Shown here in pieces: positions 5,879-41,443 of a stretch of DNA of 46,160 bases (positions are counted from its first letter, which is position 1; each line of letters begins with the position of its first letter). The notes under the pieces were generated by a model. It was not told the origin of the DNA, did not search any database, and saw nothing but the letters and a program-made list of their open reading frames with translations. A program made the translations under genes and the position numbers. Origin of the DNA: Eubacteriales bacterium (lineage in GTDB: Bacteria > Bacillota > Clostridia > Oscillospirales > CAG-272); NCBI GenBank assembly GCA_045660565.1, contig JAZRDX010000008.1, positions 1-46,160 of the forward strand, given 5' to 3'.

Positions 5879-6922
5879 TTACTCAAAATCAACGGGAGCT
5901 CCAAGCTCTGCCGACTTAAAGCAGGCCTCCATTACAGAAAGAACTCTTCTGATCTGCGCATGGGTTATGAGCTGCTGCTCGGTTCCGTCAATAGCCTTTA
6001 CAAGGTTACGGTAGAAATCGTGAACGTCGGAAACGGGACGGTCCGCCTCGTAGGTTTTAAGAGTTATCTCGTCTCTCGGAGCCATTGTTTTGGTTATACC
6101 TGCGGCGGTCTGTACAGGAACGACGTCGCTTTCGTGCCATGCAAGACACTTTGCAACCTCTGCGTTCTTTCTCCAGTCCTCGATTTTTGCACTTCCGTTT
6201 TTGCACTGCATATAGAATCTCGGCATCGCGATAAAGTTGAAGGTTCCAACCTCAACGAGAGCGCTCTTTCCGCTTTCGAAGTACAGGTTAAGACGGAATC
6301 CGTCGTCAACCTCGTCGGTGGTTATATTGGTTATATCGCAGGATATTTTCTTTATTTTTTCGGGAATAAGCTGAAGCATCTGGTCGATAAGATGTACACC
6401 CCAGTCGAGTATCATTCCGCCGCCGTACTGCTTGTGGCAACGCCAGTCGGAGGGAATACCGCGCGAGCCGTGTATTCTGGATTCGATACGGATAACCTCG
6501 CCTATATCGCCTTCCGCTATAATGTTTTTCATAGCGAGGAAGTCAACGTCCCAACGTCTGTTCTGATGAACGGTGAACAGCTTTCCGCTTTTCTTTGCCG
6601 CGTCCAGCATCTCGTCAAGCACGTCAACGCTCATGGCAACGGGCTTTTCGCAAACTACGTTCTTGCCCGCAAGAAGCGCTTTAACAACTATGTCTTTATG
6701 TACGTCGTTAGGTGTTGCAACAACAACTATGTCGCATTTCGGATCCGCAATAGCCTCGTCGAGAGATGAGTAGGCGTGTATGCCCTTCTGTCTTGCAAGC
6801 TCGCTTTTCTTTTCGTCTATATCGTATATTCCGAGCAGGGAAACGACGTCGCTGCTAAGCGCGTGATTTGCGTGCCAGCCGCCCTGACCTCCGAAGCCTA
6901 TAACGGTTACGTTCTTTTTCAT
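5879..6922 (-). CDS. Gfo/Idh/MocA family NAD(P)-dependent oxidoreductase
   Basis: Rossmann N-terminus VTVIGFGGQGGWH and the EKP motif (VVCEKPVAMS). The track start at 6937 is a TTG overlapping the GGAGG RBS, so the ATG at 6922 was used. Confidence 0.85.
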   Translation of the reverse strand: MKKNVTVIGFGGQGGWHANHALSSDVVSLLGIYDIDEKKSELARQKGIHAYSSLDEAIADPKCDIVVVATPNDVHKDIVVKALLAGKNVVCEKPVAMSVDVLDEMLDAAKKSGKLFTVHQNRRWDVDFLAMKNIIAEGDIGEVIRIESRIHGSRGIPSDWRCHKQYGGGMILDWGVHLIDQMLQLIPEKIKKISCDITNITTDEVDDGFRLNLYFESGKSALVEVGTFNFIAMPRFYMQCKNGSAKIEDWRKNAEVAKCLAWHESDVVPVQTAAGITKTMAPRDEITLKTYEADRPVSDVHDFYRNLVKAIDGTEQQLITHAQIRRVLSVMEACFKSAELGAPVDFE

Positions 6923-7031
6923 GTTTTTTGCCTCCAACTGTTAAACTGTGGTAAATTTTCAAGAATAAACTGTATTTTGCATCTGCAAAAGCAACGGTTT
7001 AATCTAAATGTATTTTAAATTTATTATATAT

Positions 7032-19695: not shown

Positions 19696-19724
19696 TTGAT
19701 AAAACAGACGTTGGATGCTATAAT
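19696..19724 (+). promoter_or_regulatory. SigA-type promoter for the Cys-rich lipoprotein gene
   Basis: TTGATA-17 nt-TATAAT, 38 nt upstream of the ATG at 19762. Confidence 0.6.
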
Positions 19725-19761
19725 TGTACTTGCTAAAATATTCTATTTAAGGAGAGCAATT

Positions 19762-25988: not shown

Positions 25989-27035
25989 ATGACAAAGGAT
26001 AATAAGATAGGATACGCGGTTGCGGGACTCGGTGTCGGAAAAACACACGTAGAGTCCGCGCTTCAGTACGAAAAATGCAGACTTGTCGCGGTTTGCGACC
26101 TTATTCCGGAGAAAATTAAGAGCGTTACCGATAAAAACCCGGACGTTATCGGTTATACCGATTTCGATGAGATGCTGAAGAATCCCGAAATAGACGTAAT
26201 AAGCATTTGTCTTCCGAGCGGAATACACGCGGAGTATGCGGTTAAAGCTCTGAACGCGGGTAAAAACGTGCTCGTTGAGAAGCCTATCGACATTACGGTC
26301 GAGGCGGCGATGAAGATCGAAGAGGCGAGAAAACTTACAGGTAAAAAGGTTGGCTGTATTTATCAGAACAGAAATCATGCTGTTATGAAGCCGCTTAAAG
26401 CCGCTATTGACAGCGGAAAGCTCGGCAAGGTGTTCCTCGGAACGTTTGCTGTAAAGTGGTACAGAGCGCAGAGCTACTATGACGGTGAAACCTGTTGGCA
26501 CGGCACGTGGGAAATGGACGGCGGCGGCTCGCTCATCAATCAGGCTATCCACACGCTTGACATTATGCAGTGGCTTATGGGTGAACCGGAGAGCGTAACC
26601 TCGACGATGTCGATAAACGCCCACAATATAGACACCGAGGACCTTACGGCGTCCATAGTAAAGTTTAAAAGCGGAGCCACAGCGACGTTTTTATCCACTA
26701 CCTGCTGCTATCCCGGTCTTTCCACCGATATTCAAATTTACGGAACCAAAGGCTCGGTTGAGCTTGACGCAGACGTTCTTAAGCTCTGGAAGATAGAGGG
26801 TGAGGACGAGCGCGACGAGGAGGATATGCTTGACAGATACGGCAGAGGAAACAGAGTTGCCTGCGCATACGAGGAAGGTCTTAAGTACGGACACGTAACA
26901 CAGATAGAGGATATGGTTGACGCAGTTATCGAGGACAGAGATCCCCAGATCACCCCTATGGAAGCGATCAAAGCCGTTAAGCTGATCGAAGCAATTTACA
27001 GCTCCGCGCGTACCGGAGAGACGGTGTATTTCTAA
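25989..27035 (+). CDS. Gfo/Idh/MocA family oxidoreductase
   Basis: IGYAVAGLGVGKTH Rossmann N-terminus and the EKP motif (VLVEKPIDIT). Confidence 0.85.
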   Translation: MTKDNKIGYAVAGLGVGKTHVESALQYEKCRLVAVCDLIPEKIKSVTDKNPDVIGYTDFDEMLKNPEIDVISICLPSGIHAEYAVKALNAGKNVLVEKPIDITVEAAMKIEEARKLTGKKVGCIYQNRNHAVMKPLKAAIDSGKLGKVFLGTFAVKWYRAQSYYDGETCWHGTWEMDGGGSLINQAIHTLDIMQWLMGEPESVTSTMSINAHNIDTEDLTASIVKFKSGATATFLSTTCCYPGLSTDIQIYGTKGSVELDADVLKLWKIEGEDERDEEDMLDRYGRGNRVACAYEEGLKYGHVTQIEDMVDAVIEDRDPQITPMEAIKAVKLIEAIYSSARTGETVYF

Positions 27036-27491: not shown

Positions 27492-27520
27492 TTGACTTTT
27501 TTATATTATTATGTTATAAT
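27492..27520 (+). promoter_or_regulatory. SigA-type promoter of the 13-kb ABC-associated operon
   Basis: TTGACT-17 nt-TATAAT with TGT upstream of the -10 element. It is about 185 nt upstream of the SBP start. Confidence 0.7.
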
Positions 27521-27593
27521 TTGAGAGTAAAAAACTTTTGCGACGATGTAGGTATTATCTGAGGTGCGGAATGGTACCGAGGAGGGTGCTTAA

Positions 27594-27710
27594 ATGTCGA
27601 ATCGGAAGCGGTGGTGGCTGCCGGCTCAGAGGAGCAAATTACAGCCAATCGGTTTACGCGCGAAGGCGCGAGCCAAACATAACAATTCTTTATGGAGGAA
27701 CCCTAAATGA
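27594..27710 (+). CDS. Possible 38-aa very basic upstream ORF (MSNRKRWWLPAQRSKLQPIGLRAKARAKHNNSLWRNPK)
   Basis: Not in the ORF track because it is under 60 aa. GAGGAGGG lies 7 nt upstream of the ATG. The stop TGA (27708-27710) overlaps the SBP ATG (27707-27709) as ATGA. Codon choice is GC-rich like neighbouring genes. No homology was recognised. Confidence 0.35.
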   Translation: MSNRKRWWLPAQRSKLQPIGLRAKARAKHNNSLWRNPK

Positions 27711-30700
27711 AACAATGGCGAAAACACAGACTTGTTGCTGTACTTTTGTTGGTCTGTACTTTTGTCGGTATGTTGCCCTTTACGGCTGCTTATGCCGCAA
27801 ATGACGACGTGCTTACCGGCGGAAGTGCGCTTGAGGATGACGAGACACTGTACGGCGGCAAAACTCTTGAGGAAATACTGAAGCTTACGAGCGGTATGAA
27901 CTACGACGTTTATAGTAGCAAGTGGGTTGGTAAAACTCAGGTTGATAAGAGCTCGGATAGAAAATGGCATGCATCTGATATAGTCGTTCCGAAGAACGAG
28001 AAGAGTCCTGTATCCGGAGAGTTTCTTACCACGTCCGACTATCAGATTGCCGATTTTACGGCGAAAAAGGCTGACGGAACACTTGATACTCGCGAAGGTG
28101 TTTATATGCCCGCAAGCGGTAAAACAACCTTTAAAATAACTGTTCCGCAGAGCGGTCTTTACGCTATCGACCTTGATTACTTCACTGTATCTCAGTTTGA
28201 TGAGGACGGAGACGGTGTTGCTGAAACGGTCGGTACGAAGACGATCATAGAGCGTATGTTCTATCTCGACGAGCAGCTTCCGTTCAACGAGTGCCGTTAC
28301 CTCTACATTCCGAGATGCTGGGAGTACGTCGGTACCGACGGAACGAGCATTCTTTATAAAGAGGACGAGCCGAAGCGCTCTGATTTCCAGAACGACCTTG
28401 ATTTCGACAAGGCGTATACAGAGTGGCTTAAGACCTCCGGCGGCGCGGGCGGAAACTACATGTGGGATACCGATATCGAGGATAACGATATCCGTCCCGA
28501 CCGTGTAGAGGCTCCTACGTGGCGTACATACTTCCTTAGAGACTGGCTCGGCTATACTGTTGAACCCTTCCAGTTCTATCTTACCGAGGGTGAGCACTAC
28601 TTCACCTTTGAGGCGACCAGAGAGCCTATCGTTGTTTCCGACATAAAGATCTACGGATATAACTCGGAAAACAGCTACGAGGTTGTTCTTGACAGATGGC
28701 TCGGTTCCGGTCTTCAGATTTACACCGGTGAGAGCGTATATGTGGTAGAGGCGGAAAGCCCGTACAGAGTATCTGATCAGGTTCTTTTCCCCGGTACCGA
28801 CCGTACCTCTTGCCTTAACTCTCCTTCCCATCCTTCCAACCTTGTTTATAATATTTCCAACTCCAGCGTCGTTGGTCAGTATATGACTTACAGGGTTTAC
28901 GTTCAGGAAGAGGGACTTTATAACATAATGGCGAGATTCCGTCAGAACACTATGGCGGGAATGTTTACGTCAAGACGTATCAGAGTAAACGGAGAAATAC
29001 CGTTTAAAGAGGCAAGCTACCTTAAATTTAATTATGATACTTCCTTCCAAAACATTCTTCTCGGCAACGGTAAAGAAGGCAAAGAGAAGCAGGATTACCT
29101 CTTCTACTTTGAGGCAGGCTGGAACGAAATAGAGGTAGAGGTCGTTCTCGGTGATATGTCCGCGTACATTTATGATATAGCGGCGCTTATCAGTACGCTT
29201 AACAGCGACTATCAGAAGATACTTATGGTAACCGGAACAAACCCCGATACCTACCGTGACTACGGATTTTCAAGACTTCTTCCCGGAGTTATGTCCGACC
29301 TTGCTAACGCAGCGATAAAGCTTGACGAGATTTATAACGGCCTCGTTGAGATAACGGGAGCGACCGGACAGCATATAGCAACGCTTGATACGATACGTAC
29401 TCTTGTTTCGAAGATGGCGCTTGATGAATATGAGATCGCACCTAACTTCCTTTCCTTTAAAAACTATTTAACAGCGCTCAGTAACTGGCTTTACACCTCG
29501 CTTTCTCAGCCGCTGAAGCTTGACTACTTACGTATTCAGGGCGAGGAGACCAAGGTTCCGAAGGCTAAGGCAGGCTTCTTCTACGCTATGGGTTACGAGG
29601 CAAAGGCGTTCGTAGCCAGCTTCTTCAAGGACTATAACGTTATAGGATTTAAGAGCGATAAGGATGCCAAGGATTACAAGGGCACCATTCTTATGTGGAA
29701 CACCACCAGCCGTGAGGATGCGCTTATACTCCGTACGATGATTGATTCATCGTTTACACCGGGCACCAATATAGCTGTTAACATCAGATATGTTGCGCAG
29801 GGACTTCAGGAATCAATTCTTGCGGGAGTTGGACCTGACGTTGCGATGATGGCGTCGGGTACGGCGGTTTCTTGGGGACTTCGTCATGCGGTTGAGGACC
29901 TCAGTGCTAAGTACACCGAGGCAGACCTTGAAAAAGGAAAGATACCCGAGGGCAAGAACGTAGGCGATGACGTTTACCCCGGATTCAGCGAGCTTTGTCC
30001 GAAGACCGCCCTTGACGACGACGGACTTGTAAACGATTTCGTTGTTCCCGATCCTAAGGTTTACGAGGAAACCGGTAAGTTTAACGTAAAATTCTCGCAT
30101 GCGGCTCTTGAAGCTGTATCGCTTGAAGGTAAGACCTACCTTATTCCCTGCACCATGAACTACGAAATGGCGTTCTACCGTGTCGACGTGTTTGCTCAGT
30201 ACGACCTGAAGCCTCCGAGAACATGGCAGGAGCTTCTTACAGTTCTTCCTAAGCTTACGAATAACCACATGACGATGGGTATGCAGACCTCTCTTGCCGG
30301 TTACCAGATGCTTCTTTACCAGATGGGCGAGAAGATGTATGCTGACGAGTATAAGAGATTCAATAACAGCGTAACCTGTCTTGAGGCATTTGATACGCTT
30401 TGCTCACTCTTTAACGACTATTCGCTTCCTGTTAACTACGACCTTACCCGTTTCCGTACCGGTGAGATTCCGATCGTTGTTGCTAACTGGACTACCTACA
30501 ATACCTTCATGAGCTACTATGAGCTTCGTGGAATGTGGACGATAGAGCCTCTTATCGGTTGGGACAAGGGCGACGGAACGGTTGACCGTTCTTCCATACT
30601 TAACGTTGAAGGTATCGTAATTCCTAAGGGAAGCGACAATCCCCAGCACGTATGGGAATACATCAAATGGTATTCCGATGATGAGGCACAGGCAAGACTT

Positions 30701-31036
30701 GCAAGACAGCAGCTTGCTGTATCCTCCAACACTACCGTAAAGTACAACACCGCGAACCTCAACGCTCTTCTTGAGCAGGCATGGACCGATGCAGAGAGAG
30801 AAGCGATGTTTGAGCAGATCCCTCACCTTAAAGGTATTCCGTACAACCCCGGTGATTATAACATCGGTCGTTACGTAAACTTTGCGTTCCTTGCTGTTTA
30901 TAACACCAAGGCAAACGCGGTTGACCAGATCCTTGACTACGTCGTTGATATAGACAAGGAGCTTTCGCGTAAGCGCAAGGAATATCACCTTTCATACATT
31001 GATTATTATACCGACGAGATAGTACCCGCCAAGTAA
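27707..31036 (+). CDS. 1109-aa extracellular solute-binding protein: two CBM-like beta-sandwich modules fused to a family-1 sugar SBP domain
   Basis: GGAGG RBS and signal MKQWRKHRLVAVLLLVCTFVGMLPFTAAYA, which has no canonical lipobox. The N-terminal ~600 aa contains two CBM6/35-like patterns (GLYAIDLDYF...YFTFEATREPIVVSDIKIYG and GLYNIMARFRQN...RIRVNGE...GWNEIEVEVVLG). The C-terminal ~500 aa is SBP-like. Confidence 0.7.
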   Translation: MKQWRKHRLVAVLLLVCTFVGMLPFTAAYAANDDVLTGGSALEDDETLYGGKTLEEILKLTSGMNYDVYSSKWVGKTQVDKSSDRKWHASDIVVPKNEKSPVSGEFLTTSDYQIADFTAKKADGTLDTREGVYMPASGKTTFKITVPQSGLYAIDLDYFTVSQFDEDGDGVAETVGTKTIIERMFYLDEQLPFNECRYLYIPRCWEYVGTDGTSILYKEDEPKRSDFQNDLDFDKAYTEWLKTSGGAGGNYMWDTDIEDNDIRPDRVEAPTWRTYFLRDWLGYTVEPFQFYLTEGEHYFTFEATREPIVVSDIKIYGYNSENSYEVVLDRWLGSGLQIYTGESVYVVEAESPYRVSDQVLFPGTDRTSCLNSPSHPSNLVYNISNSSVVGQYMTYRVYVQEEGLYNIMARFRQNTMAGMFTSRRIRVNGEIPFKEASYLKFNYDTSFQNILLGNGKEGKEKQDYLFYFEAGWNEIEVEVVLGDMSAYIYDIAALISTLNSDYQKILMVTGTNPDTYRDYGFSRLLPGVMSDLANAAIKLDEIYNGLVEITGATGQHIATLDTIRTLVSKMALDEYEIAPNFLSFKNYLTALSNWLYTSLSQPLKLDYLRIQGEETKVPKAKAGFFYAMGYEAKAFVASFFKDYNVIGFKSDKDAKDYKGTILMWNTTSREDALILRTMIDSSFTPGTNIAVNIRYVAQGLQESILAGVGPDVAMMASGTAVSWGLRHAVEDLSAKYTEADLEKGKIPEGKNVGDDVYPGFSELCPKTALDDDGLVNDFVVPDPKVYEETGKFNVKFSHAALEAVSLEGKTYLIPCTMNYEMAFYRVDVFAQYDLKPPRTWQELLTVLPKLTNNHMTMGMQTSLAGYQMLLYQMGEKMYADEYKRFNNSVTCLEAFDTLCSLFNDYSLPVNYDLTRFRTGEIPIVVANWTTYNTFMSYYELRGMWTIEPLIGWDKGDGTVDRSSILNVEGIVIPKGSDNPQHVWEYIKWYSDDEAQARLARQQLAVSSNTTVKYNTANLNALLEQAWTDAEREAMFEQIPHLKGIPYNPGDYNIGRYVNFAFLAVYNTKANAVDQILDYVVDIDKELSRKRKEYHLSYIDYYTDEIVPAK

Positions 31037-31066
31037 ATAATAATTAAGAAGATTTAAAAACACTGT

Positions 31067-31100
31067 CCCGACGTAAGCCGCTTAGTGCGGCCTACGTGGG
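31067..31100 (+). promoter_or_regulatory. Intercistronic stem-loop between the SBP and permease genes
   Basis: cccgacgtaagccgc-ttagt-gcggcctacgtggg is an imperfect ~13-bp stem with no U-run after it. Confidence 0.45.
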
Positions 31101-31137
31101 AACGAATATTATACAATTAAGATAGGAGATAGCGACT

Positions 31138-32109
31138 ATGTCTGATAATTCAACGGTTGTACAGGACGAAGTAGCGACTGAAGAAGTACCGTACGTCAAC
31201 AAAACTATCAGCAGATGGGAATACACTAGACGCGAAATGAAGCGTAAGTGGTCCGGATATGTTATGGTTGGCCCGTTCCTTCTTATGTTTGCAACCTTTA
31301 CCATCGTTCCGGTTGTTATGTCGTTCATTTTAAGCTTTACCAACTTTAATATGTTCGAATTTCCGGAATTTTGTTTCATGGATAACTACATTCGTCTTTT
31401 CCTGGAAGATGACCTCTTCCTCACAGCGTTCCAGAACACGCTTATATTTGCGTTAACAACAGGACCGCTTTCGTATATTCTTTCCTTCCTTCTTGCATGG
31501 TTCATAAACGAGCTTGCTCCGAAGGTAAGAGCATTCGCAACGTTTATATTCTACGGACCTTCCATTTCAGGCTCCGCTTACCTCGTCTGGAAGCTTATAT
31601 TCCAGGGAGATATATACGGACTTGCAAACGGAGTTCTGATGAAATTCGGTTTGATATCAAAGCCGATAGTATTCTTACAGAACGTAACTTACATAGTTCC
31701 CGTATGTATAGTAGTTTCTATTTGGACGTCTCTCGGAACTGCGTTCCTTTCATTTATCGCAGGTCTTCAGGGCGTTGACAGAAGCCTTTATGAAGCGGGA
31801 GCGGTTGACGGTGTTAAAAACCGTTGGCAGGAGCTTTGGTACATAACCCTTCCCTCAATGAAATCCATTCTTATGTTCGGTGCGGTTCTTGCTATTACCG
31901 GTGCGTTCGGATTCGGAGGAATAGTTGACGCGCTCTGCGGAAACCCCTCTACCGACTACTGCGCATGGACGCTTCAGCATCATATGGCAGACTACCTGAA
32001 CGCAAGATATGAGGTTGGATACGCTTCCTGTATATCAATCGTGCTCTTTATACTTATGTTCGGATCGAACATATTTATTAAAAATGCTTTGTCGAAGGTA
32101 GGTAACTGA
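31138..32109 (+). CDS. Sugar ABC transporter permease, MalF-like (pair 1)
   Basis: Six-TM layout and EAA loop YEAGAVDGVKNRWQELWYITLP. Confidence 0.85.
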   Translation: MSDNSTVVQDEVATEEVPYVNKTISRWEYTRREMKRKWSGYVMVGPFLLMFATFTIVPVVMSFILSFTNFNMFEFPEFCFMDNYIRLFLEDDLFLTAFQNTLIFALTTGPLSYILSFLLAWFINELAPKVRAFATFIFYGPSISGSAYLVWKLIFQGDIYGLANGVLMKFGLISKPIVFLQNVTYIVPVCIVVSIWTSLGTAFLSFIAGLQGVDRSLYEAGAVDGVKNRWQELWYITLPSMKSILMFGAVLAITGAFGFGGIVDALCGNPSTDYCAWTLQHHMADYLNARYEVGYASCISIVLFILMFGSNIFIKNALSKVGN

Positions 32110-32111
32110 GT

Positions 32112-32981
32112 ATGAAAAAACTGAGAACAAGAAAGCACGCCGTCGTTCTTAACCGAAGCGTCGGCGGAGATACGACCATTACCCTTATACTTTCGATATT
32201 CGGTATATTTATGTTTCTTCCTACTTATTATCTTATAATAACGGCATTCAAGCCGATAGGAGAAATGTTCCTTACACCGCCTAACTTCTACGTTATAAAA
32301 CCGACGTTCCAGAACTTTATCGACCTTTTCGCGTCAATGACTTCAACGTGGGTTCCGATTTCGAGATACATATTCAATACGATATTTATTTCGCTCGGCG
32401 CTACCGTCGGATGTCTTATTATAGGTTCTATGGCGGCGTATTCGATTTCCAAGGTTCGCTTCCCCGGAGCAAACGGAATATTCCAGCTTATAGTTTATTC
32501 GCTTATGATTTCCTCTACGGTTACGGGAATTGCGCACTTTATCATCTTCGTTTCGCTTAACTGGCTTAACACGTATACGATTTCTATAGTTCCGATCTGG
32601 GCATCTACCCTCGGTCTGTACCTTATGAAAAACTTTATAGACTCTTCAATTCCCGACTCAATGATCGAGGCGGCGCGAATTGAGGGTTGCTCGGAATTCA
32701 GAATATACCTTACGCTCGTTATGCCTCTGGTTAAGCCCGCGTGGCTTACACTTATGATCACCGTTTTCCAGCAGGTTTGGAACGTCGGTGCATCGAGCTA
32801 CGTTTACAGTGAAAACTTAAAAACATTCGATAATGCTATTAACAGCATCATCTCCGCATCGGGAACACAGGGTGCGGGAGCTGCTGCGGCCGTTATAATG
32901 ATGAGCGTACCGATCACGGTATTTATTATAACTCAGAGTAAGATGGTTGAAACGATGGCATCTTCCGGAATGAAGGATTAA
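32112..32981 (+). CDS. Sugar ABC transporter permease, MalG-like (pair 1)
   Basis: EAA loop IEAARIEGCSEFRIYLTLVMP. There is a 2-bp gap to the preceding gene. Confidence 0.85.
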   Translation: MKKLRTRKHAVVLNRSVGGDTTITLILSIFGIFMFLPTYYLIITAFKPIGEMFLTPPNFYVIKPTFQNFIDLFASMTSTWVPISRYIFNTIFISLGATVGCLIIGSMAAYSISKVRFPGANGIFQLIVYSLMISSTVTGIAHFIIFVSLNWLNTYTISIVPIWASTLGLYLMKNFIDSSIPDSMIEAARIEGCSEFRIYLTLVMPLVKPAWLTLMITVFQQVWNVGASSYVYSENLKTFDNAINSIISASGTQGAGAAAAVIMMSVPITVFIITQSKMVETMASSGMKD

Positions 32982-32998
32982 AGAAAGGGGAGCGAGTA

Positions 32999-35227
32999 AT
33001 GAATATAAGAAAAAGAAAAGTATTGTTCGGATTTGTTATATGTGCGCTTACCCTGGTTATAACTCTCCTTCCGATATACGCATCTGCGTATTCCACGTAT
33101 ACCTATTCGATAGACGGAACACAGCTTTCGTCTCCCAACGCTTACGAGCCTCAGAGAGTTTACGACTCCGTTTCAACCGGAATAACGGCACTCTCGGGAA
33201 AGAGACTTTACGAGCCTAAGGACCTTGTTGTTGACCCCGACGGTAACATTTATATATGTGATGGCGGTACGGAGTTCGTCAGCTCCGGAACGACGGGCAG
33301 CACGGAAATGATCGAAATCAAGCACGACAGAATAGTTGTTCTTGACAGATATTTTAACTATCTCTATGAAATCTCAGGGTTTACCAACTCGATGGGTGCA
33401 AACGACGTCCTTAACTCTCCCGGCGGACTTTGTGTTACAGAGACCAAAATCTATATCGCGGATACTAAGAACGCCAGAATAGTTGTATTCAACAGAGAAA
33501 ACGGCGGCCGTACACAGCCCACCTTCCATAGCATAATAGGTGCGCCTGAGGCTGAGGTTTTCCCGGCAGGTTCTTCCTACACTCCCGTAGCGGTTGCATC
33601 TAACGATAGCCACGTATACGTAGTTTCATCTTCTACGTACATGGGAATTATCTCGATGGATCTTAAAGGCGAGTTCCAGGGATTTGTCGGAGCTCAGAAG
33701 GTTGCTGCTAACCTGCTTGATATTTTCTGGAGAACCTTCCAGACAGCAGAGCAGAGAGCGCAGTCCGCGACCTACGTTTCTACCGAGTATAACAACATAG
33801 CCATTGATGAAAGCGGATTCATCTACGCTACCACATCTAATATCAACGAAGCTAAACAGCAGCAGGCTATTGAGTCTCGCTCAACCTCGTCTAACTACGC
33901 TCCGGTTAAAAAGCTTAACACAGCGGGTGAGGACGTTATGAACCGTACCGGTTTCTATCCTCCGTCCGGAGAGGTTAAGGTTGCTAATGTTTCCTTTGAC
34001 GGAAGCCCGACGGGACCGTCCAAGATAATCGACGTTGCTATGGGACCTGAAAGAACATGGTCTATTATCGACCGTCAGCGTCAGAGAATATTTACCTATG
34101 ATAAGAACGGTAACCTTCTCTTTGCTTTCGGTGATAAGGGAAAGCAGCTCGGAAACCTTGAGAGCATCAAGGCGATAGCGTATCAGGATGACAACCTGCT
34201 TATCCTCGATATTTACAGTAAAAACCCGACGGTAGCGATGTATACCAGAACGGACTACGGCGACCTTCTTATAAAGGCTCTCCGCAACGATAATAACCGT
34301 GAATACGAAAAAGCGGTTGACGATTACAGCGAGATACTTCAGCGTAACATCAACTTCGACGCGGCTTACATCGGAATAGCTAAATCTCTTTACCGTAGCG
34401 GTGATTACAACGGCGCTATGGAGCAGTACTCCTACGCATATAACACGGCGGGATACTCTCAGGCGTTTAAGATGTTCAGAAAAGACTGGGTATCTAAGTA
34501 TATTATTGTAATCCCGATAGTAGTTGTAGCTGTTGTATTTGCTCTTTCGTGGTTCTTTAAGTTTGCCGCGAAGGTTAACGCTAAGACGGCAGTTTCCGGA
34601 GGTAAGAGAACCTTTGGACAGGAGCTTCTCTTTGCCATCCATCTTATATTCCATCCGTTTGACGGCTTCTGGGATCTTAAGCATGAAAAGAGAGGTTCGT
34701 TTAAAGGAGCCCTCTTCTACACGGGACTTGCGGTTCTTGTATTTACGTATCAGAGCGTAGGACGTTCTTATATGTATAACCCGAGAGGAGTTTACTCCAG
34801 TATCGGAGCACAGTGCCTTGCAGTATGTATACCGCTTCTGCTTTGGGTTGTATCCAACTGGTGTCTTACCACACTGTTTGACGGTGAGGGAAGCGCAAAG
34901 GACATCTTTATTGCAACCGGTTATTCGCTTGCACCGCTTCCGTTCCTTATAATTCCCGCAACGCTTCTTACCCACATCCTTTCCTCCGCTGAATCCGGAA
35001 TTATAACCCTCTTAACAACCTTTGCGTTTGTTTGGGTAGGACTTCTTATATTCTTCGGAGAGATGATAACTCACGACTATTCGATAGTCAAAAATATAGC
35101 GACGAGCCTTGGTACCATAGGCGGTATGGCAGTTATAATGTTCATATTCATACTGTTTGCGTCGCTTGTTTCCGATATGCTCGGTCTCGTTACCAACATA
35201 ATTACGGAAATTACTTATAGATTGTAA
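32999..35227 (+). CDS. Membrane protein: signal, six-bladed NHL-type beta-propeller, TPR-like segment, C-terminal Yip1-family multi-TM domain
   Basis: NHL-like blades include PKDLVVDPDGNIYICD, LNSPGGLCVTETKIYIADTKNARIVVFN and IDESGFIYATT. The TPR-like segment is YEKAVDDYSEILQRNINFDAAYIGIAKSLYRSGDYNGAMEQY. After that come a TM and then HPFDGFWDLK plus about 5 TMs typical of Yip1-domain proteins. Confidence 0.65.
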   Translation: MNIRKRKVLFGFVICALTLVITLLPIYASAYSTYTYSIDGTQLSSPNAYEPQRVYDSVSTGITALSGKRLYEPKDLVVDPDGNIYICDGGTEFVSSGTTGSTEMIEIKHDRIVVLDRYFNYLYEISGFTNSMGANDVLNSPGGLCVTETKIYIADTKNARIVVFNRENGGRTQPTFHSIIGAPEAEVFPAGSSYTPVAVASNDSHVYVVSSSTYMGIISMDLKGEFQGFVGAQKVAANLLDIFWRTFQTAEQRAQSATYVSTEYNNIAIDESGFIYATTSNINEAKQQQAIESRSTSSNYAPVKKLNTAGEDVMNRTGFYPPSGEVKVANVSFDGSPTGPSKIIDVAMGPERTWSIIDRQRQRIFTYDKNGNLLFAFGDKGKQLGNLESIKAIAYQDDNLLILDIYSKNPTVAMYTRTDYGDLLIKALRNDNNREYEKAVDDYSEILQRNINFDAAYIGIAKSLYRSGDYNGAMEQYSYAYNTAGYSQAFKMFRKDWVSKYIIVIPIVVVAVVFALSWFFKFAAKVNAKTAVSGGKRTFGQELLFAIHLIFHPFDGFWDLKHEKRGSFKGALFYTGLAVLVFTYQSVGRSYMYNPRGVYSSIGAQCLAVCIPLLLWVVSNWCLTTLFDGEGSAKDIFIATGYSLAPLPFLIIPATLLTHILSSAESGIITLLTTFAFVWVGLLIFFGEMITHDYSIVKNIATSLGTIGGMAVIMFIFILFASLVSDMLGLVTNIITEITYRL

Positions 35228-35243
35228 AAGGAGGACGGCAAAA

Positions 35244-38200
35244 ATGAGAAACAGCACTAAAAGAATATTTCACAGAACATTGTCAGGCTTCCTTGCAATC
35301 TTAACTGTAATCACTATGCTTGCAACTTTATCAATGCTTCCCGTAATGGCGGCAGAGGGTGAGGTTAACGAAAGCTCGCTGAAGTTCAATGCTACGTATT
35401 ATCAGAACTACTATACGCAGGCTAAAAACAAGGACAGAAAGACAAAGTTCCTTACCGAAGAGGCAAGACTTTCCGCAATGAAGCTTCATAACTCGAAGGG
35501 AGACTTTGAACTTTACGTTGACGAGATTACCGGAGAGGTAGCTCTTAAGGACAAGAGTACAGGAAACGTACTTTTCACAACTCCTTACGATACCGCGGAG
35601 GATACCCGTATATCCTACGACAGAAAGGTAGAGCTTCTCAGCCAGGTAATTATAAACTATTCCAGCATCAGCGGTTCTACCGGAACCTACAACTCCTTTA
35701 CGCATTCCGCTCTTCTTAACCAGATCAGCATAAGAAAGCTTAAGGGTGGAGTTCGTATAGAATACTCCATAGGACAGGAAGAATCCCGTATTCTCGTTCC
35801 GATGGCAATAACCGCAACGAGATTCAAGGCAATGATCGAGGCACCTCTTCTTGAGCTCTTCCCCGATATTGACGACGTTACCACGCCTTATTCAAAGCTT
35901 ACCGCTTTCTACGGACTGTATAACGAATACAGTAGCAAGGTAGAAAAGTACCCCGTTCTTAAAGAGAAGCAGTTATACCTTCTCCACGAGAATACCAACG
36001 GACGTGAAAAGAAACAGATTGAGTCTATAATCAGACGTTACTGCCCCGACTACACCTTCGAAGAGCTTGATAAGGACCACAAGGAAGCAGGCTACGAGGG
36101 AAGCGCGGTAGCACCGGCTAACTTCAAGATGGCTCTTGAGTACTACATTACAGACGTTGGAGTTGAAGTAAGATTCCCCGCAAACGGACTTACATTTGAC
36201 GAAAGTAACTATCAGCTCACCGACATAACCCTTCTTAAGTATATGGGCGCGGGCGCAAGCAACTACAAAGGCTACACCTTCTTCCCCGACGGATCCGGTG
36301 CGCTTGTAAGATTCGAAGACCTCTCCAGCTACTACAACAGAGGTGGAGCGGTTTACGGACAGGACTACGCGTATCAGGAGATAGGTAACGCAAACCAAGA
36401 GGTATTCAGAATGCCTGTATTCGGTGTTGTTACCACCAATGAGAAGAGAAGTGAAGTAGCAACTATTCCCGGAACTGTTGACAAGAAGTATTCCACAGGA
36501 TACCTTGCGATAGTTACTGAGGGAGATGCTCTTGCAAGTATATTCACTAACCACGAGGGCGACAGCAAGTTTATGTACAATTCAGCGTACTGTAAGCTTG
36601 CACCGAGACCTCAGGATAAGTATAACCTTGCCGAAGCAATTTCAATTAGCGGAAGCGATACGTTTACCGTTGTTTCTGACCGTAAGTATACTGATTCCTT
36701 CAGAATTAACTACATTATGCTTACCGACGCGGAAAACCCGGGTAAAAACCCTGAAAGAACGTATTACGACGCAAGCTACGTCGGAATGTCAAAGGCATAC
36801 AGAGACTTCCTTGAAAACAAGGGAGACATCAAGCGCATAGAGGACGCTAAGGAGGATATACCGCTTTACATCGAAGCGTTCGGTGTAACCGAAACCGATG
36901 AAACGGTTCTCAGTATCCCCGTAACCGTTAAAAAAGCTCTTACATCCTTTGATGATCTCAGAGCAATGACCACGGAGCTTGAAACCGCTAAGTCTCCGAT
37001 CACAAACGTAAATTACAGACTTACCGGATATACCAACGGCGGTATGAAGGCAACCATCCCTTCGAAGGTTAAGTTTGAAAGAGAAGCAGGCGGAAACGCA
37101 GGCTTCAGAGAGTTCCTTACGTATGCGGCTGAAAAGGGAATCGGTGTATATCCCGACTTCGACTTTGTTTATATGAGTGAGACTGCAGCGTTTGACGGTT
37201 TCTCATATAAGACCGACGCGGTAAAGACTATCGACGACCGTTATACCACAAAGAGAACCTACGACGCTGTTCTTCAGACCTTTACCACCACGGGAAAGAT
37301 TTGTATTTCGTCCAGCGTATTCAGAAGCCTTTTCGATAGATTCAATAAGTCCTTCGACGCTCTCCTTGAGGATAAGATCACGTTTGTTTCCGCAGGAACG
37401 CTCGGTTCTGAGCTTAACTCCGACTTTGACGGAGACGACCCGTACAACCGTGAGGATGCTAAGAAGTACACCATTGAAACTCTTGAAAGACTTAAAAAAG
37501 AATATGGCGCAGTTATGGTAGACTCCGGAAACGCATATACCATTCCTTACGCGTCCGTTGTACTTAATGCTCCTCTTGATTCCAGCCGTTACCTCGGCGC
37601 CAGTGAGGCTATCCCGTTCTTCGGAATGACCTTCCACGGCTACGTTGTATTCGCAGGAAAGCCTACCAATATGGCGGGCGATATGAACTACGAGCTTCTT
37701 AAGATTATCGAAAACGGAGCAACGCTTTACATGATGCTCTCCTACGATAACGTTGAGATACTTAAGGAGGACGAAGAGCTTTCCAAGTATTACGCTATAA
37801 GATATGAGATCTGGAAGGAGAAGCTCCTTACCACCTACGACGAGGCCGGTAATGTAGTTTCTGTAGGACTTTACGATAAGCTTAATAACGCTCTTAAGGA
37901 CGTTCAGCAGTCGCTTATAAACGACCATCTCTTTGTAACCTGTAAGCGTAAGCTCACAGATACCGAGAGCGCGAACATCGAAGCGGATGCTAAGAGACAG
38001 CAGGCTGAAAAGCTCGCTGAGTATGAGGCAAAGCTTAACGACGCAAAAGAGAAGAAGGCTGTTTACGACAGAATAGTTGAGGATTACCCCGATGTAGCTG
38101 AGCGTAATCAGATTTTAGAGAACTACGGAATTGATATTGACGCTATAAACGCTGATATTCAGAACTATACCGAGCTTTACAATACCGAGAAAAATGACGC

Positions 38201-38618
38201 AAAGCTTGAGGAGTACAAGAACATACTCCTTTCCGGAATCAACCTTGACATAAATGACGGAAGCGTTGTTTACGTTGAGTACGTTAACGATAACGGCGAT
38301 AAGCATTGGTTCCTCCTTAACTACAACAACTACGACGTTGAAGTAAACACCTACAAGCTTGATGCTAACGGCGAGCGTATAACGATCGACGAAATGAATG
38401 CTTCGAACCTTGTTATCACTGTTGATGGCAAACAAATCGTTGTTGAAAAGAACGCCGCAGGAAACTGGACAGTAGACTCGTTTGGAAATATCGTTGTAGG
38501 AAACGGAACCAACCTTGTAGTTGACTCCGACGGTTACGTAAAAGCAAAGCTTGAAGTTCAGTCGAAGGACTTCTTCGATTCAAATTCCGAAACCGGTAAA
38601 ACGGTATCTTATAAATAA
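35244..38618 (+). CDS. 1124-aa secreted protein of unknown function, recognised from memory only as DUF5696-like, with a coiled-coil segment near the C-terminus
   Basis: AAGGAGG RBS and signal ...LATLSMLPVMA/AEG. There is no LPXTG, no lipobox and no catalytic motif that I can name. A coiled-coil-like stretch reads ESANIEADAKRQQAEKLAEYEAKLNDAKEKKAVYD. Confidence 0.5.
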   Translation: MRNSTKRIFHRTLSGFLAILTVITMLATLSMLPVMAAEGEVNESSLKFNATYYQNYYTQAKNKDRKTKFLTEEARLSAMKLHNSKGDFELYVDEITGEVALKDKSTGNVLFTTPYDTAEDTRISYDRKVELLSQVIINYSSISGSTGTYNSFTHSALLNQISIRKLKGGVRIEYSIGQEESRILVPMAITATRFKAMIEAPLLELFPDIDDVTTPYSKLTAFYGLYNEYSSKVEKYPVLKEKQLYLLHENTNGREKKQIESIIRRYCPDYTFEELDKDHKEAGYEGSAVAPANFKMALEYYITDVGVEVRFPANGLTFDESNYQLTDITLLKYMGAGASNYKGYTFFPDGSGALVRFEDLSSYYNRGGAVYGQDYAYQEIGNANQEVFRMPVFGVVTTNEKRSEVATIPGTVDKKYSTGYLAIVTEGDALASIFTNHEGDSKFMYNSAYCKLAPRPQDKYNLAEAISISGSDTFTVVSDRKYTDSFRINYIMLTDAENPGKNPERTYYDASYVGMSKAYRDFLENKGDIKRIEDAKEDIPLYIEAFGVTETDETVLSIPVTVKKALTSFDDLRAMTTELETAKSPITNVNYRLTGYTNGGMKATIPSKVKFEREAGGNAGFREFLTYAAEKGIGVYPDFDFVYMSETAAFDGFSYKTDAVKTIDDRYTTKRTYDAVLQTFTTTGKICISSSVFRSLFDRFNKSFDALLEDKITFVSAGTLGSELNSDFDGDDPYNREDAKKYTIETLERLKKEYGAVMVDSGNAYTIPYASVVLNAPLDSSRYLGASEAIPFFGMTFHGYVVFAGKPTNMAGDMNYELLKIIENGATLYMMLSYDNVEILKEDEELSKYYAIRYEIWKEKLLTTYDEAGNVVSVGLYDKLNNALKDVQQSLINDHLFVTCKRKLTDTESANIEADAKRQQAEKLAEYEAKLNDAKEKKAVYDRIVEDYPDVAERNQILENYGIDIDAINADIQNYTELYNTEKNDAKLEEYKNILLSGINLDINDGSVVYVEYVNDNGDKHWFLLNYNNYDVEVNTYKLDANGERITIDEMNASNLVITVDGKQIVVEKNAAGNWTVDSFGNIVVGNGTNLVVDSDGYVKAKLEVQSKDFFDSNSETGKTVSYK

Positions 38619-38632
38619 AGGGAGGCAGTAAA

Positions 38633-39631
38633 ATGGATAATGAAGCAAAACTTCAGCCTGAAGTAATACAGGCACCCGCGGCACCGCGTCCGAAAAACAC
38701 CAAAAAGCGCCGCAAAAAAGCAGCCTCTCTTGATAAGAGAAAGGCAAAAAGCGGATGGATATTCGTTCTTCCGTTTATTCTCGGTCTTGTAATTATATAC
38801 CTTCCCGTTATAGTAGAATCATTTAGATACTCGCTTTCCTCAATGAAGCCTCAGGCAGGTGGATACCTTTTTGAGTTCATAGGAGTTGAGAACTACCAAA
38901 AGGCACTCTTCGAGGACGCAAGCTTTACTAAGACGCTTGTGTCGGGTATAAGGGGAATGGTAATTGACATTCCGGTTATAGTTATATTCTCGCTCTTCGT
39001 AGCGGTAATACTTAACCAGAAGGTTCTCGGAAGAGCGGCATTCAGAGCTATATTCTTTATACCTGTTATCTGTTCTACCGGGCTTATGGGACACATAGCA
39101 TCCAACACAGCTTCGTTTAACGACTACATGGCTGACCAGAGCCAGGGTATTAATACCGGTGCTGCAAGCGGAGGCTTTGGAATAAGCGCGCAAAGCATAG
39201 AAAAGATGTTCGCGAATATGAAGGTCGGTAACGAGATAGCGGTTTACGTTATCGGAGCTGTTAACAGTATAGCCGGTATCATAGAACGCTGCGGTGTACA
39301 GATGCTCGTATTCCTTGCGGCACTCCAGTCAATCTCGCCCGCTATATACGAGTCCTGCTCGATAGACGGCGCTACAACCTGGGAGACGTTCTGGAAGATA
39401 ACCCTTCCTATGATAAGCCCGATGATACTTGTTAATGCGATATATACGGTTATCGACTCGTTCACCTCGGAAAGCAACGCGGTCATGAAGTATATCAGTA
39501 ATAAATATCTTGAAGACCAACCGGTTTCCGCGGCAATGGCGTGGCTGTACTTCGCAGTTATAGTTGCAATGGTTGCAGTTGTTGCGATATTGCTAAAGAC
39601 TTACGTATTCTACCAGAAGAGAGATTCTTAA
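38633..39631 (+). CDS. Sugar ABC transporter permease, MalF-like (pair 2)
   Basis: Basic N-terminal tail and EAA loop YESCSIDGATTWETFWKITLP. Confidence 0.85.
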   Translation: MDNEAKLQPEVIQAPAAPRPKNTKKRRKKAASLDKRKAKSGWIFVLPFILGLVIIYLPVIVESFRYSLSSMKPQAGGYLFEFIGVENYQKALFEDASFTKTLVSGIRGMVIDIPVIVIFSLFVAVILNQKVLGRAAFRAIFFIPVICSTGLMGHIASNTASFNDYMADQSQGINTGAASGGFGISAQSIEKMFANMKVGNEIAVYVIGAVNSIAGIIERCGVQMLVFLAALQSISPAIYESCSIDGATTWETFWKITLPMISPMILVNAIYTVIDSFTSESNAVMKYISNKYLEDQPVSAAMAWLYFAVIVAMVAVVAILLKTYVFYQKRDS

Positions 39632-39649
39632 GAAAGGAGGTTTTGAAAA

Positions 39650-40708
39650 ATGGATAATAACGTTAATACCGCTCCCAAGATACTTAAGGAGAGCAAAAAT
39701 AAAATTACTGTTGATTTTGAAAGAACCTCCAGACTTGAGAGAATGAAGATCAAGTACCTGAACATATCATATGTCGGTGTTCTGCTTTGGCGTATGCTTC
39801 GCTTCCTTCTTCTCCTTGGAATTTCTTACATCATACTTTACCCCTTCTTCTCGAAGATAATGGCTTCGTTCATGGGCGAAAAGGACTTCGTTGACGTTAC
39901 TGTTAAGCTTATTCCTAAATATCCGACGCTTGATACGTATAAGGCTATTATAGTAGACCTTCAGTATTTCCAGGCACTTCTTAACACCTTCCTGCTTTCG
40001 CTTGTAACCGCATTGGTTCAGACGTTTGTTTGTAGTGTTATCGGATACGGATTTGCTAAGTTTAAGTTCCCGGGTTCAAAGCTCCTCTTTATGCTTGTTA
40101 TTTTTACCATGATAGTACCTCACTCAACGATACAGCTTGCGCTTTTCGTTAAGTTCAAGTATTTTGATATCTACGGTTTACTTAACTTGCTCGGAGGCGG
40201 AGTAACAGAGTCGTTTGATGTTCTCGGTGGAATAACTTCTGTCGACCTTACGGGTTCACTCTGGCCGCTTATAATCCTTTCATTCGGTGGACTTGCGTTT
40301 AAGAACGGACTTTATATCTTCCTTATGCGTCAGTTCTTCAGAGGCGTTCCCGACGAGCTTGAAGAGTCAGCATACATAGACGGTTCGGGTGTTTTCAGAA
40401 CCTTCATCAAGATAGTTCTTCCCCTTTCGGTACCTATGATGATTACCATCTTCCTGTTCTCGTTCTCCTGGCAGTGGACGGATAAATTCTATACCGACCT
40501 TCTGTACAGCAACAATAAGATGTATCTGCTTCCTCACCTTATCGGTAAAACCATTCCGTCTCTTAACACAGAGCACGCGAAGGAGATCGCTGAGGCTGCG
40601 GCTCAGAACACCATCGGTCTTATGATAATCGCTCCGTTGATTATAGTATACCTCTTCTGTCAGAGATATCTGGTTGAGGGTATTGAGCGTTCCGGTATAA
40701 CCGGTTAA
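39650..40708 (+). CDS. Sugar ABC transporter permease, MalG-like (pair 2)
   Basis: EAA loop EESAYIDGSGVFRTFIKIVLP and an AAAGGAGG RBS. Confidence 0.85.
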   Translation: MDNNVNTAPKILKESKNKITVDFERTSRLERMKIKYLNISYVGVLLWRMLRFLLLLGISYIILYPFFSKIMASFMGEKDFVDVTVKLIPKYPTLDTYKAIIVDLQYFQALLNTFLLSLVTALVQTFVCSVIGYGFAKFKFPGSKLLFMLVIFTMIVPHSTIQLALFVKFKYFDIYGLLNLLGGGVTESFDVLGGITSVDLTGSLWPLIILSFGGLAFKNGLYIFLMRQFFRGVPDELEESAYIDGSGVFRTFIKIVLPLSVPMMITIFLFSFSWQWTDKFYTDLLYSNNKMYLLPHLIGKTIPSLNTEHAKEIAEAAAQNTIGLMIIAPLIIVYLFCQRYLVEGIERSGITG

Positions 40709-40755
40709 GGCTGACAGTACATCCGATACTGAAAAACGGAAAAAAGAACAATAAA

Positions 40756-40792
40756 ATCGAGGTGTCGGTTTATAACCGATGCCTCGTTTTTA
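40756..40792 (+). terminator. Rho-independent terminator of the 13-kb operon
   Basis: cgaggtgtcggtt-tat-aaccgatgcctcg has a stem with one 2-nt internal mismatch and is followed by tttttattt. Confidence 0.7.
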
Positions 40793-41059
40793 TTTAATCG
40801 AAAGCAGTGCTGAATGATACGTTTTTACGTTTTTGTATGACGTGTGGATAAAAAGAAATTTACGGAAAAGATTACAAACGCGTATAATTTATCGAAAAAA
40901 AGCCAAAACTTTATTTGAATAATCAGATTTAACTCCCAAGGCCTCCTAAAAAACAGCGTAGCTTTGGTTATCGGTAACGTATTTAGATAGAATTTTAGTT
41001 AATAACATATTGCATATCAAACTCTTTTGCGGTTACATAGTATATATAAAGGAGAAGAT

Positions 41060-41409: not shown

Positions 41410-41443
41410 CTATGTATTAATGTTGGCGTGAAAGGTGCGAAAA

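Follow-up and report, generated by a model that had tools for sequence, protein, structure and literature searches.

The operon described here comprises seven plus-strand genes over 13 kb, within a 46,160-nt window (the whole stretch of DNA analysed, from contig JAZRDX010000008.1 of a Eubacteriales bacterium). It is probably a conserved carbohydrate capture-and-import module of monoderm bacteria, in which an NHL-Yip1 protein would act as membrane scaffold and a shared ATPase would be encoded elsewhere. The genes encode, in order, a giant solute-binding protein (SBP), a pair of ATP-binding cassette (ABC) permeases (P1 and P2), an NHL-TPR-Yip1 membrane protein, a DUF5696 protein and a second pair of permeases (P3 and P4). 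Together they are referred to as the cassette, and their coordinates are given in Table 1. The domains of these proteins had been called in an earlier note made from the DNA sequence, and the calls were borne out by Pfam (SBP_bac_1/8, BPD_transp_1 in all four permeases, NHL, Yip1, a weak TPR and DUF5696). The same note had recognised no nucleotide-binding subunit, regulator, glycoside hydrolase (GH) or lyase. This agrees with the Pfam and NCBIfam scans, in which no ATPase, regulator or sequence-recognisable carbohydrate-active enzyme (CAZyme) was found in the operon.

A one-genome-per-species scan, limited by its search patterns, returned 443 confirmed DUF5696 matches, and the best 80 were examined as loci (numbered with the prefix L). 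All come from Clostridia metagenome-assembled genomes (MAGs) of animal guts and digesters, Candidatus Flemingiibacterium and Oscillospiraceae among them, and the identity of their DUF5696 proteins to that of the window spans 39-83%. The order giant SBP, P1, P2, NHL-Yip1, DUF5696, P3, P4 is found throughout the 80 loci wherever the contig suffices, and no pseudogene is present in any of them. The earlier proposal of a joint machine was to fail if the NHL-Yip1 and DUF5696 genes were not syntenic with ABC permeases in other genomes. Both lie between the permease pairs in all of the 80 close loci that have enough sequence and in 8/9 of the more distant loci described below. Median identity to the window across L010-L080 was 55-61% for the permeases, 51% for NHL-Yip1, 43% for DUF5696 and 35% for the SBP. 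One locus, L038 (JAGARL010000319.1), is a complete bacterial cassette on a contig deposited as Methanocorpusculum sp., an archaeon; the archaeal label most probably stems from a mistake in the binning of that MAG.

Genes flanking the cassette in the 80 close loci vary and are of a housekeeping kind, such as those for a cysteine desulfurase (Aminotran_5)/NifU, an HD hydrolase, AlaRS, CarB and ThyX. Clustering of the flanking genes revealed no conserved ATPase, regulator or CAZyme. Such surroundings in 80/80 close loci would suit a housekeeping role in the envelope of this clade, namely recycling or remodelling of the cell's own glycopolymers (wall polysaccharide, capsule or S-layer glycan), as would a conserved near-consensus promoter box and the presence in the window of several peptidoglycan-related genes (an M23 peptidase and PG_binding_1 proteins). 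However, cultured plant-polysaccharide degraders have the cassette among mannanase, cellulase, pectinase and rhamnogalacturonan-lyase genes under AraC/LacI control, and the SBP domain resembles binders of dietary oligosaccharides. We consider an envelope role highly improbable.

Nine distant loci were found via SBP and DUF5696 homologues. In Paenibacillus montaniterrae the cassette, with NHL and Yip1 as separate overlapping genes, is accompanied by LacI, a small SBP and GH26, and P. baekrokdamisoli carries the same seven-gene block. The cassette of Dictyoglomus thermophilum is found with GH5-CBM_X2, and a Caldicellulosiruptoraceae isolate has two GH5-CBM_X2/CBM46 genes and a small SBP beside its own. 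A Lachnospiraceae MAG has PL11 rhamnogalacturonan lyases, DUF624, AraC and an extra SBP around its cassette, and three further MAG cassettes have AraC, GntR, GH2 and pectate-lyase-like proteins alongside. A reduced version occurs in Saccharofermentanales (L088), where a small lipoprotein SBP, NHL, Yip1, DUF5696 and P3-/P4-type permeases lie between GH28, GH36 and AraC. Across at least two phyla the seven genes have been passed on together as a unit, and in other lineages the cassette is a module within otherwise ordinary Gram-positive polysaccharide utilisation loci (gpPULs) with regulators. The CAZymes and regulators alongside the cassette in distant taxa make the system less exotic than a stand-alone machine with neither enzyme nor regulator would be. 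Since the cassette accompanies mannanases, cellulases, pectinases and rhamnogalacturonan lyases, it behaves as a generic import core and not as a substrate-specific pathway. These flanking CAZymes, together with the oligosaccharide-binding fold of the SBP, support the carbohydrate substrate that had been suggested.

An additional SBP of normal size adjoins the cassette in distant loci (Table 1). Five of these small SBPs are mutually related, the longer proteins of L087 and L089 are related to each other, and most are lipoproteins. The small SBP looks like an ancestral eighth component. None adjoins the cassette in the window or in its 80 relatives, and one permease pair is therefore left without an obvious partner in cis.

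PF00528 (BPD_transp_1) scores above threshold in all four permeases, and an EAA-type coupling-loop motif is readable in each (EAGAVDG...ITLP in P1, EAARIEG...LVMP in P2). Judged from their sequences, the permeases provide the two BPD_transp_1 transmembrane subunits with EAA loops that are characteristic of a type I importer. As the EAA loops are kept in all four, each pair should dock an ABC ATPase. In NCBIfam the permeases match UgpA, UgpE, MalG and GlcU best (UgpA-like for P1, UgpE/GlcU/MalG-like for P2), with scores far under the equivalog cut-offs throughout. Identity is 25% between P1 and P3 and 23% between P2 and P4, so that P1P2 and P3P4 are old paralogues and not a recent duplication. 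Extra loops are present in P3 (~55 residues, at ~155-212) and P4 (at ~168-206).

No ABC_tran protein is encoded in the operon or beside any of the 89 related cassettes, and the sole ABC ATPase in the 46-kb window is part of a Znu-type metal system. As far as can be read from its genes, the operon does not itself provide the two nucleotide-binding subunits of a type I importer. The absence of an ATPase beside the cassette fits the shared MsmX-type multitask ATPases that are encoded apart from the importers in B. subtilis systems (PMC7658222, PMC5730181). That absence, with the lack of a sequence-recognisable CAZyme, is also the one thing that would favour a non-carbohydrate system, in which export, or uptake of peptides or other solutes, proceeds via the MalFG-like permeases. 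We find this scarcely credible. A cluster-B SBP together with BPD_transp_1 permeases that have EAA loops is characteristic of type I importers, sugar systems give the best NCBIfam and structural matches, and CAZymes neighbour the cassette elsewhere.

The giant SBP begins with a signal peptide or anchor that has no lipobox, and its SBP_bac_1/8 Pfam matches are confined to residues 686-1011, within the last 40% of the protein. In an AlphaFold model (predicted local distance difference test, pLDDT, 88.4; predicted template-modelling score, pTM, 0.84) the chain is made up of beta-sandwiches at residues ~50-320 and 324-480, a four-helix bundle at 484-599 and a CUT1-type SBP domain at 600-1109. Foldseek aligned the modelled SBP domain to oligosaccharide-binding proteins with template-modelling (TM) scores of 0.64-0.79, the matches being binders of oligosaccharides that are long or cyclic, namely cycloisomaltooligosaccharide, cycloalternan, sophoro-oligosaccharide, maltodextrin and manno-oligosaccharide. 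On this model the protein has the SBP_bac_1/8 (cluster B) fold of a type I importer SBP. Two carbohydrate-binding-module-like modules had been proposed in the N-terminal part. These are plausible though not proven, as there are two beta-sandwiches and both regions have sub-threshold matches to CBM_35 and Golvesin_C in SBP homologues (Pfam, E <= 1); the whole-chain fold search was dominated by the SBP domain and gave no fold match to the N-terminal modules. A lipobox was found in just 3/66 giant SBP homologues. Its absence is unusual for an SBP of a monoderm, and without a lipid anchor some other means of retention is implied.

The NHL-TPR-Yip1 protein has a signal sequence, an extracytoplasmic NHL beta-propeller, a TPR-like linker and a C-terminal multi-pass Yip1 domain, with hydrophobic segments between residues 502 and 724. 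Yip1 (PF04893) scores 46.8 bits over residues 548-715 against a gathering cut-off of 28.6, and NHL (PF01436) scores 36.5 bits against a cut-off of 20; the Pfam match to TPR_2 is weak. Sequence matches of the propeller in the PDB include the PknD sensor propeller and the TRIM71 NHL domains. L081, L088 and L090 have NHL and Yip1 as two genes that overlap, other lineages have them fused, and fusion in some lineages with splitting in others is classic evidence that the propeller and Yip1 act together. A scaffold role for Yip1 is suggested by analogy with YknW, a Yip1 protein that modulates the assembly of the YknXYZ ABC pump (PMC4887032).

The 1124-aa protein, which the earlier note could recognise only as DUF5696-like, matches PF18952 over residues 274-871 (E 1.4e-119, 400.8 bits, cut-off 25.6), so that label was correct. 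Its hundreds of homologues are annotated with PF18952 alone, NCBIfam has no model for the family, and the very long members (2100-2545 aa) contain no further Pfam domain. A profile search of 1.84 billion cluster representatives gave 5410 matches at E <= 1e-3, each representing a cluster at 50% identity, and 2902 at E <= 1e-30. A confident model of the protein (pLDDT 81.7, pTM 0.77) contains an N-terminal signal/anchor helix, beta-sandwich domains, a (beta/alpha)8-type barrel at ~540-870 and a C-terminal beta domain. A long, charged coiled-coil insert (residues 906-997, 37959-38234) of highly variable length separates the barrel from the last of these.

In Foldseek searches this model matched GH129 (5opq, E 1.2e-22; NagBb 5wzn, E 1e-17, TM 0.67) and GH101 (E 1e-13 to 1e-10; 5a59, 5e-13), with GH36 and GH31 ranking after. 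TM scores to GH129 chains were 0.62-0.67, and identity in the structural alignments was ~10%. As modelled, the DUF5696 protein has a GH129/GH101-like overall fold. Pfam at E <= 1 assigned no GH family and returned only DUF5696 itself, and neither phmmer nor a 58-sequence profile found a GH129 or GH101 chain in the PDB, the only matches being low-complexity coiled-coil noise. At the level of sequence it is not a member of GH129/GH101. A match of this protein to a characterised CAZy family had been named as the result that would turn the operon into an ordinary gpPUL; no such match was found by sequence, but the predicted fold is that of GH129/GH101 and then GH36/GH31.

A good number of acidic residues never vary in the window's clade (D349, D374, D458, E544, D651, D664, D727, D729, D779 and E823). 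According to the secondary structure of the model, D727 and D729 come after barrel strand 4 and D779 after strand 6, and D760 is at the end of strand 5. Among 30 diverse members of the family (19-59% identity), only D349, in a PDGSG motif of the beta-sandwich, and E823 are invariant, and N763, H798, N809 and W857 are nearly so. The protein may be a hydrolase, or a hydrolase in some clades only.

The GH-like fold brings in the main rival explanation, an ordinary gpPUL with functionally independent parts. Here two independent CUT1 importers would take up two products, DUF5696 would be a secreted exo- or endo-alpha-glycosidase of an unnamed GH family, and NHL-Yip1 would be unrelated or auxiliary, for example in sensing. 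The fold itself (GH129/GH101/GH36/GH31-like) and the clade-wide invariant acidic residues at the barrel strand ends are as this explanation would have them. So are the CAZymes, the regulators and the further SBP of conventional type that are found near the cassette in distant taxa, and, in most lineages, the equal number of SBPs and permease pairs (two of each). However, an identical seven-gene order from Clostridia to Dictyoglomota is not expected of independent parts, nor is a substrate-specific glycosidase expected beside GH26, GH5, PL11, GH28 and GH2 alike. Moreover, the carboxylates of the DUF5696 barrel are not conserved family-wide, giant SBPs that lack a lipid anchor need another tether, and NHL-Yip1 is conserved better than either the SBP or DUF5696. 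We judge this explanation to be rather unlikely.

The reading that we prefer is a capture-and-import module made of two sub-modules, one comprising the giant SBP with P1P2 and the other NHL-Yip1, DUF5696 and P3P4. In most other lineages the second would also have the small lipoprotein SBP that is missing here. A shared MsmX-type ATPase, with its gene elsewhere, would drive the P1P2 as well as the P3P4 translocon. The Yip1 domain, with its propeller-TPR ectodomain, would be a scaffold keeping the non-lipidated giant SBP and DUF5696 at the translocons, where the membrane-anchored DUF5696 protein might trim or hold the captured oligosaccharide beside the permeases. The substrate would be a glycan, and its specificity probably sits mainly in the fast-evolving giant SBP. 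Expression in this clade would depend on a strong conserved promoter, perhaps tuned by a leader RNA (see below) instead of a protein regulator.

Several observations weigh against this reading. In the window's clade the cassette has housekeeping neighbours and no adjacent small SBP, CAZyme or regulator, so that a nutrient role here is an extrapolation from the distant loci. The CAZymes beside the cassette elsewhere are varied, which speaks against one particular glycan as the substrate. As for DUF5696, D727 is present in 22/30 of the diverse members (Q in Dictyoglomus and Caldicellulosiruptoraceae) and D779 in 13/30. The candidate catalytic carboxylates are thus not kept family-wide, and the protein may therefore bind rather than cut. 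Finally, that the machine is 'integrated' in the sense of a physical complex is something we infer. A stronger form of the proposal, in which the seven proteins and the shared ATPase form one stable membrane supercomplex, controlled in this clade by the leader RNA, seems to us unlikely. In it the Yip1 scaffold would connect both ABC translocons with a CBM-bearing binding protein that is not lipidated and with a surface protein of GH129/GH101-like fold. If true, it would be a monoderm counterpart of the Bacteroidota utilisome, in which long glycan fragments are captured and processed and reach the two channels without being lost by diffusion.

The promoter, the seven same-strand open reading frames (ORFs), the sizes of the gaps, the gap hairpin and the terminator were all recovered where the earlier note had placed them (ORF map, signal scan and RNA fold; Table 1). 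The intergenic gaps are, in gene order, 101, 2, 17, 16, 14 and 18 bp. Promoter-like sites in the region number 24 against 23.2 expected. Because this raw count is at chance level, support for the promoter comes from its conservation in relatives, the same -35/-10 box being found 5' of the cassette in L001, L002, L004, L005, L006, L008, L014 and L015. The hairpin in the gap between the SBP gene and P1 has a folding energy of -27.7 kcal/mol (z = -3.05; 0/200 shuffles as stable) and no T run 3' of it. It recalls the stem-loops known in other ABC operons to raise expression of the binding protein over that of the permeases, and is likely to stabilise the mRNA or cause partial attenuation, and so to set the ratio of SBP to permease. 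An Rfam scan of the operon found nothing relevant.

The ~180-nt 5' leader of the cassette contains a candidate cis-regulatory RNA element, built of a variable outer stem, a conserved CCG + AAA internal loop and an inner hairpin, GCUC-AGAG-GAGC. Its invariant bases are CCGG..CAGAGGAGCAAA, the outer stem co-varies, and the inner hairpin appears as GUUC/GAAC in L021 and with a G-U pair in L043. A covariance model (R1), built from three sequences and searched over 1.7 Mb of loci, gave ten matches, every one of them in a cassette leader upstream of the SBP gene. In the alignment 90.6% of cells were paired, compared with 22-67% in slid controls, and four pairs were changed on both sides; the alignment was fitted to the covariance model, which biases these pairing figures towards structure. 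Rfam gave no match in the leader at E <= 1, and the motif, compared by eye, is presumably unlike PyrR-binding, RAT and ANTAR elements. More distant cassette relatives carry AraC, LacI or GntR proteins as regulators. In this clade the leader RNA is the only candidate regulator of the cassette, and it may be a new cis-regulatory RNA that replaces the protein regulators of the distant loci.

The leader also contains the 38-aa basic ORF that had been listed as a possible first product of the operon. In spite of its good Shine-Dalgarno sequence it was rejected as a gene, since L001 and L002, the closest relatives, retain the nucleotide motif but neither the start codon nor the frame (ATG to ACG, with in-frame stops). 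The ORF is specific to this contig and is probably a by-product of the leader RNA sequence.

Table 1. Positions of the cassette and its signals, of neighbouring genes in the window, and of corresponding elements in related loci.
Feature	Sequence	Position	Strand	Remarks
Sigma-70-type promoter	window	27492..27520	+	TTGACT-17-TATAAT, extended -10 TG; top-scoring site, 11/12
38-aa basic ORF	window	27594..27710	+	good Shine-Dalgarno; rejected as gene
Candidate cis-regulatory RNA element	window	27601..27651	+	in 5' leader
Giant SBP gene	window	27707..31036	+	1109 aa
Hairpin between SBP gene and P1	window	31066..31101	+	RNA fold
P1, MalF/UgpA-type ABC permease	window	31138..32109	+	323 aa; BPD_transp_1
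P2, MalG/UgpE-type ABC permease	window	32112..32981	+	289 aa; BPD_transp_1
NHL-TPR-Yip1 membrane protein gene	window	32999..35227	+	742 aa
DUF5696 gene	window	35244..38618	+	1124 aa; PF18952
P3, MalF-type ABC permease	window	38633..39631	+	332 aa; BPD_transp_1
P4, MalG-type ABC permease	window	39650..40708	+	352 aa; BPD_transp_1
Intrinsic terminator	window	40758..40796	+	13-bp stem at 40758-40786, 7 G-C pairs, then T run
GFO/IDH/MocA oxidoreductase, second copy	window	5879..6937	-
1430-aa ORF	window	19696..23988	+	upstream of operon
GFO/IDH/MocA oxidoreductase	window	25989..27035	+	immediately 5' of cassette
938-aa protein	window	41435..44251	+	directly 3' of operon terminator
Leader element copy	L001	2378-2428
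Leader element copy	L002	2377-2427
Leader element copy	L004	2369-2421
Leader element copy	L005	2431-2482
Leader element copy	L006	2374-2423
Leader element copy	L007	2326-2374
Leader element copy	L008	2165-2216
Leader element copy	L021	2791-2844
Leader element copy	L043	2796-2844
Small SBP beside cassette	L081	8553-9914
Small SBP beside cassette	L084	8525-9838
Small SBP beside cassette	L086	1814-3124
Small SBP beside cassette	L090	1783-3189
Small SBP beside cassette	L091	14695-16083
SBP beside cassette	L087	14754-16460		longer
SBP beside cassette	L089	14390-16069		longer
SBP beside cassette	L088	6029-7699

The rest of the window is of a housekeeping nature, with genes for ThyX, the Znu-type ABC system, DnaX, RecR, PcrA, the M23 peptidase and PG-binding proteins. 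Adjoining the cassette on its 5' side is a gene for a GFO/IDH/MocA oxidoreductase that has a terminator of its own, and a second copy is found elsewhere in the window. The upstream gene keeps its place beside the cassette in L001, L002, L004 and L005, and in L062 there is a homologue downstream; the enzyme might act on the imported sugar. The 938-aa protein encoded just beyond the operon has homologous ORFs after the cassette in L001-L005, L008 and L009. Neither this protein nor that of the 1430-aa ORF, which has an N-terminal hydrophobic segment, has a match in Pfam, NCBIfam or the PDB.

How Gram-positive bacteria of the gut and of plant biomass take in large fragments of glycans is understood in much less depth than the Sus paradigm of Bacteroidota. 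The cassette is common and recurs in loci for mannan, glucan, pectin and rhamnogalacturonan. A specialist in glycan uptake would be surprised that a cassette with two translocons, a putative Yip1 scaffold and a cryptic protein of GH fold is so strictly conserved. DUF5696 gains a testable assignment, a GH129/GH101-like fold that may stand for a new GH family or for a binding protein derived from a GH, and the data point to a role for bacterial Yip1 with importers and to tethering of SBPs without lipid anchors. With P. montaniterrae, P. baekrokdamisoli and D. thermophilum as cultured carriers, these hypotheses are directly testable. The earlier note knew of no characterised example of such an operon, and a literature search likewise found none. 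Within the searchable papers there was none on DUF5696/PF18952 and none linking Yip1 to polysaccharide utilisation, and a search for Yip1 with an ABC permease and SBP returned nothing related.

Among the known systems close to it, the cassette works like the CUT1 importers (MalEFGK2, UgpBAEC and the MsmX-driven systems of B. subtilis), with which it shares MalF-/MalG-type EAA permeases, the oligosaccharide-binding SBP fold and, as for MsmX, an ATPase that is presumably encoded elsewhere. It differs from them in having two permease pairs in one operon and two further large extracytoplasmic or membrane proteins conserved between these pairs. Its SBP is also ~2.5 times the normal size, with two beta-sandwich modules and a helical bundle in addition, and has no lipid anchor. 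In YknWXYZ of Bacillus a Yip1-family protein is likewise encoded with an ABC transporter and is needed for its assembly (PMC4887032). However, YknYZ is a MacB-type exporter with a membrane-fusion protein, whereas the partners in the cassette are MalFG-type importer permeases, and Pfam detected no MacB/FtsX or HlyD-type protein in the operon. Unlike YknW, the Yip1 domain of the cassette also bears a 500-residue NHL propeller-TPR ectodomain.

The DUF5696 protein resembles the known GH129 and GH101 enzymes (NagBb, ZgGH129, SpGH101 and EngBF) in its beta-sandwich, (beta/alpha)8 barrel and C-terminal beta domain. NagBb is an alpha-N-acetylgalactosaminidase, ZgGH129 a 3,6-anhydro-D-galactosidase, and SpGH101 and EngBF are endo-alpha-N-acetylgalactosaminidases. 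Unlike these enzymes, and besides its low identity to them, DUF5696 is membrane-anchored and always encoded beside ABC permeases.

A gpPUL, as defined in Roseburia and E. rectale, combines an enzyme, a transporter and a regulator (PMC5320581). The operon in the window contains the carbohydrate transport system. Its sole candidate for the enzyme is the DUF5696 protein with its predicted GH fold, GH26, GH5, GH28, GH36, GH2 and PL11 being found in distant loci, and there is no regulator near the operon in the window or in the flanks of the 80 close loci. All three elements come together only in distant carriers, where the cassette occurs with CAZymes and AraC/LacI/GntR. NHL-Yip1 and DUF5696 are part of no gpPUL described in the searchable papers. 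An analogy, in function only, can be drawn with the SusCD-type utilisomes of Bacteroidota, in which a generic import core serves many glycan specificities together with surface binding and enzyme parts. Unlike these, the cassette is non-homologous, ABC-driven and without an outer membrane, and its proteins would form a complex only by inference. Taken together, these comparisons place the cassette within the paradigm of ABC importers and polysaccharide utilisation loci, as an accessory architecture, common but so far uncharacterised, that has ABC sugar importers as its basis.

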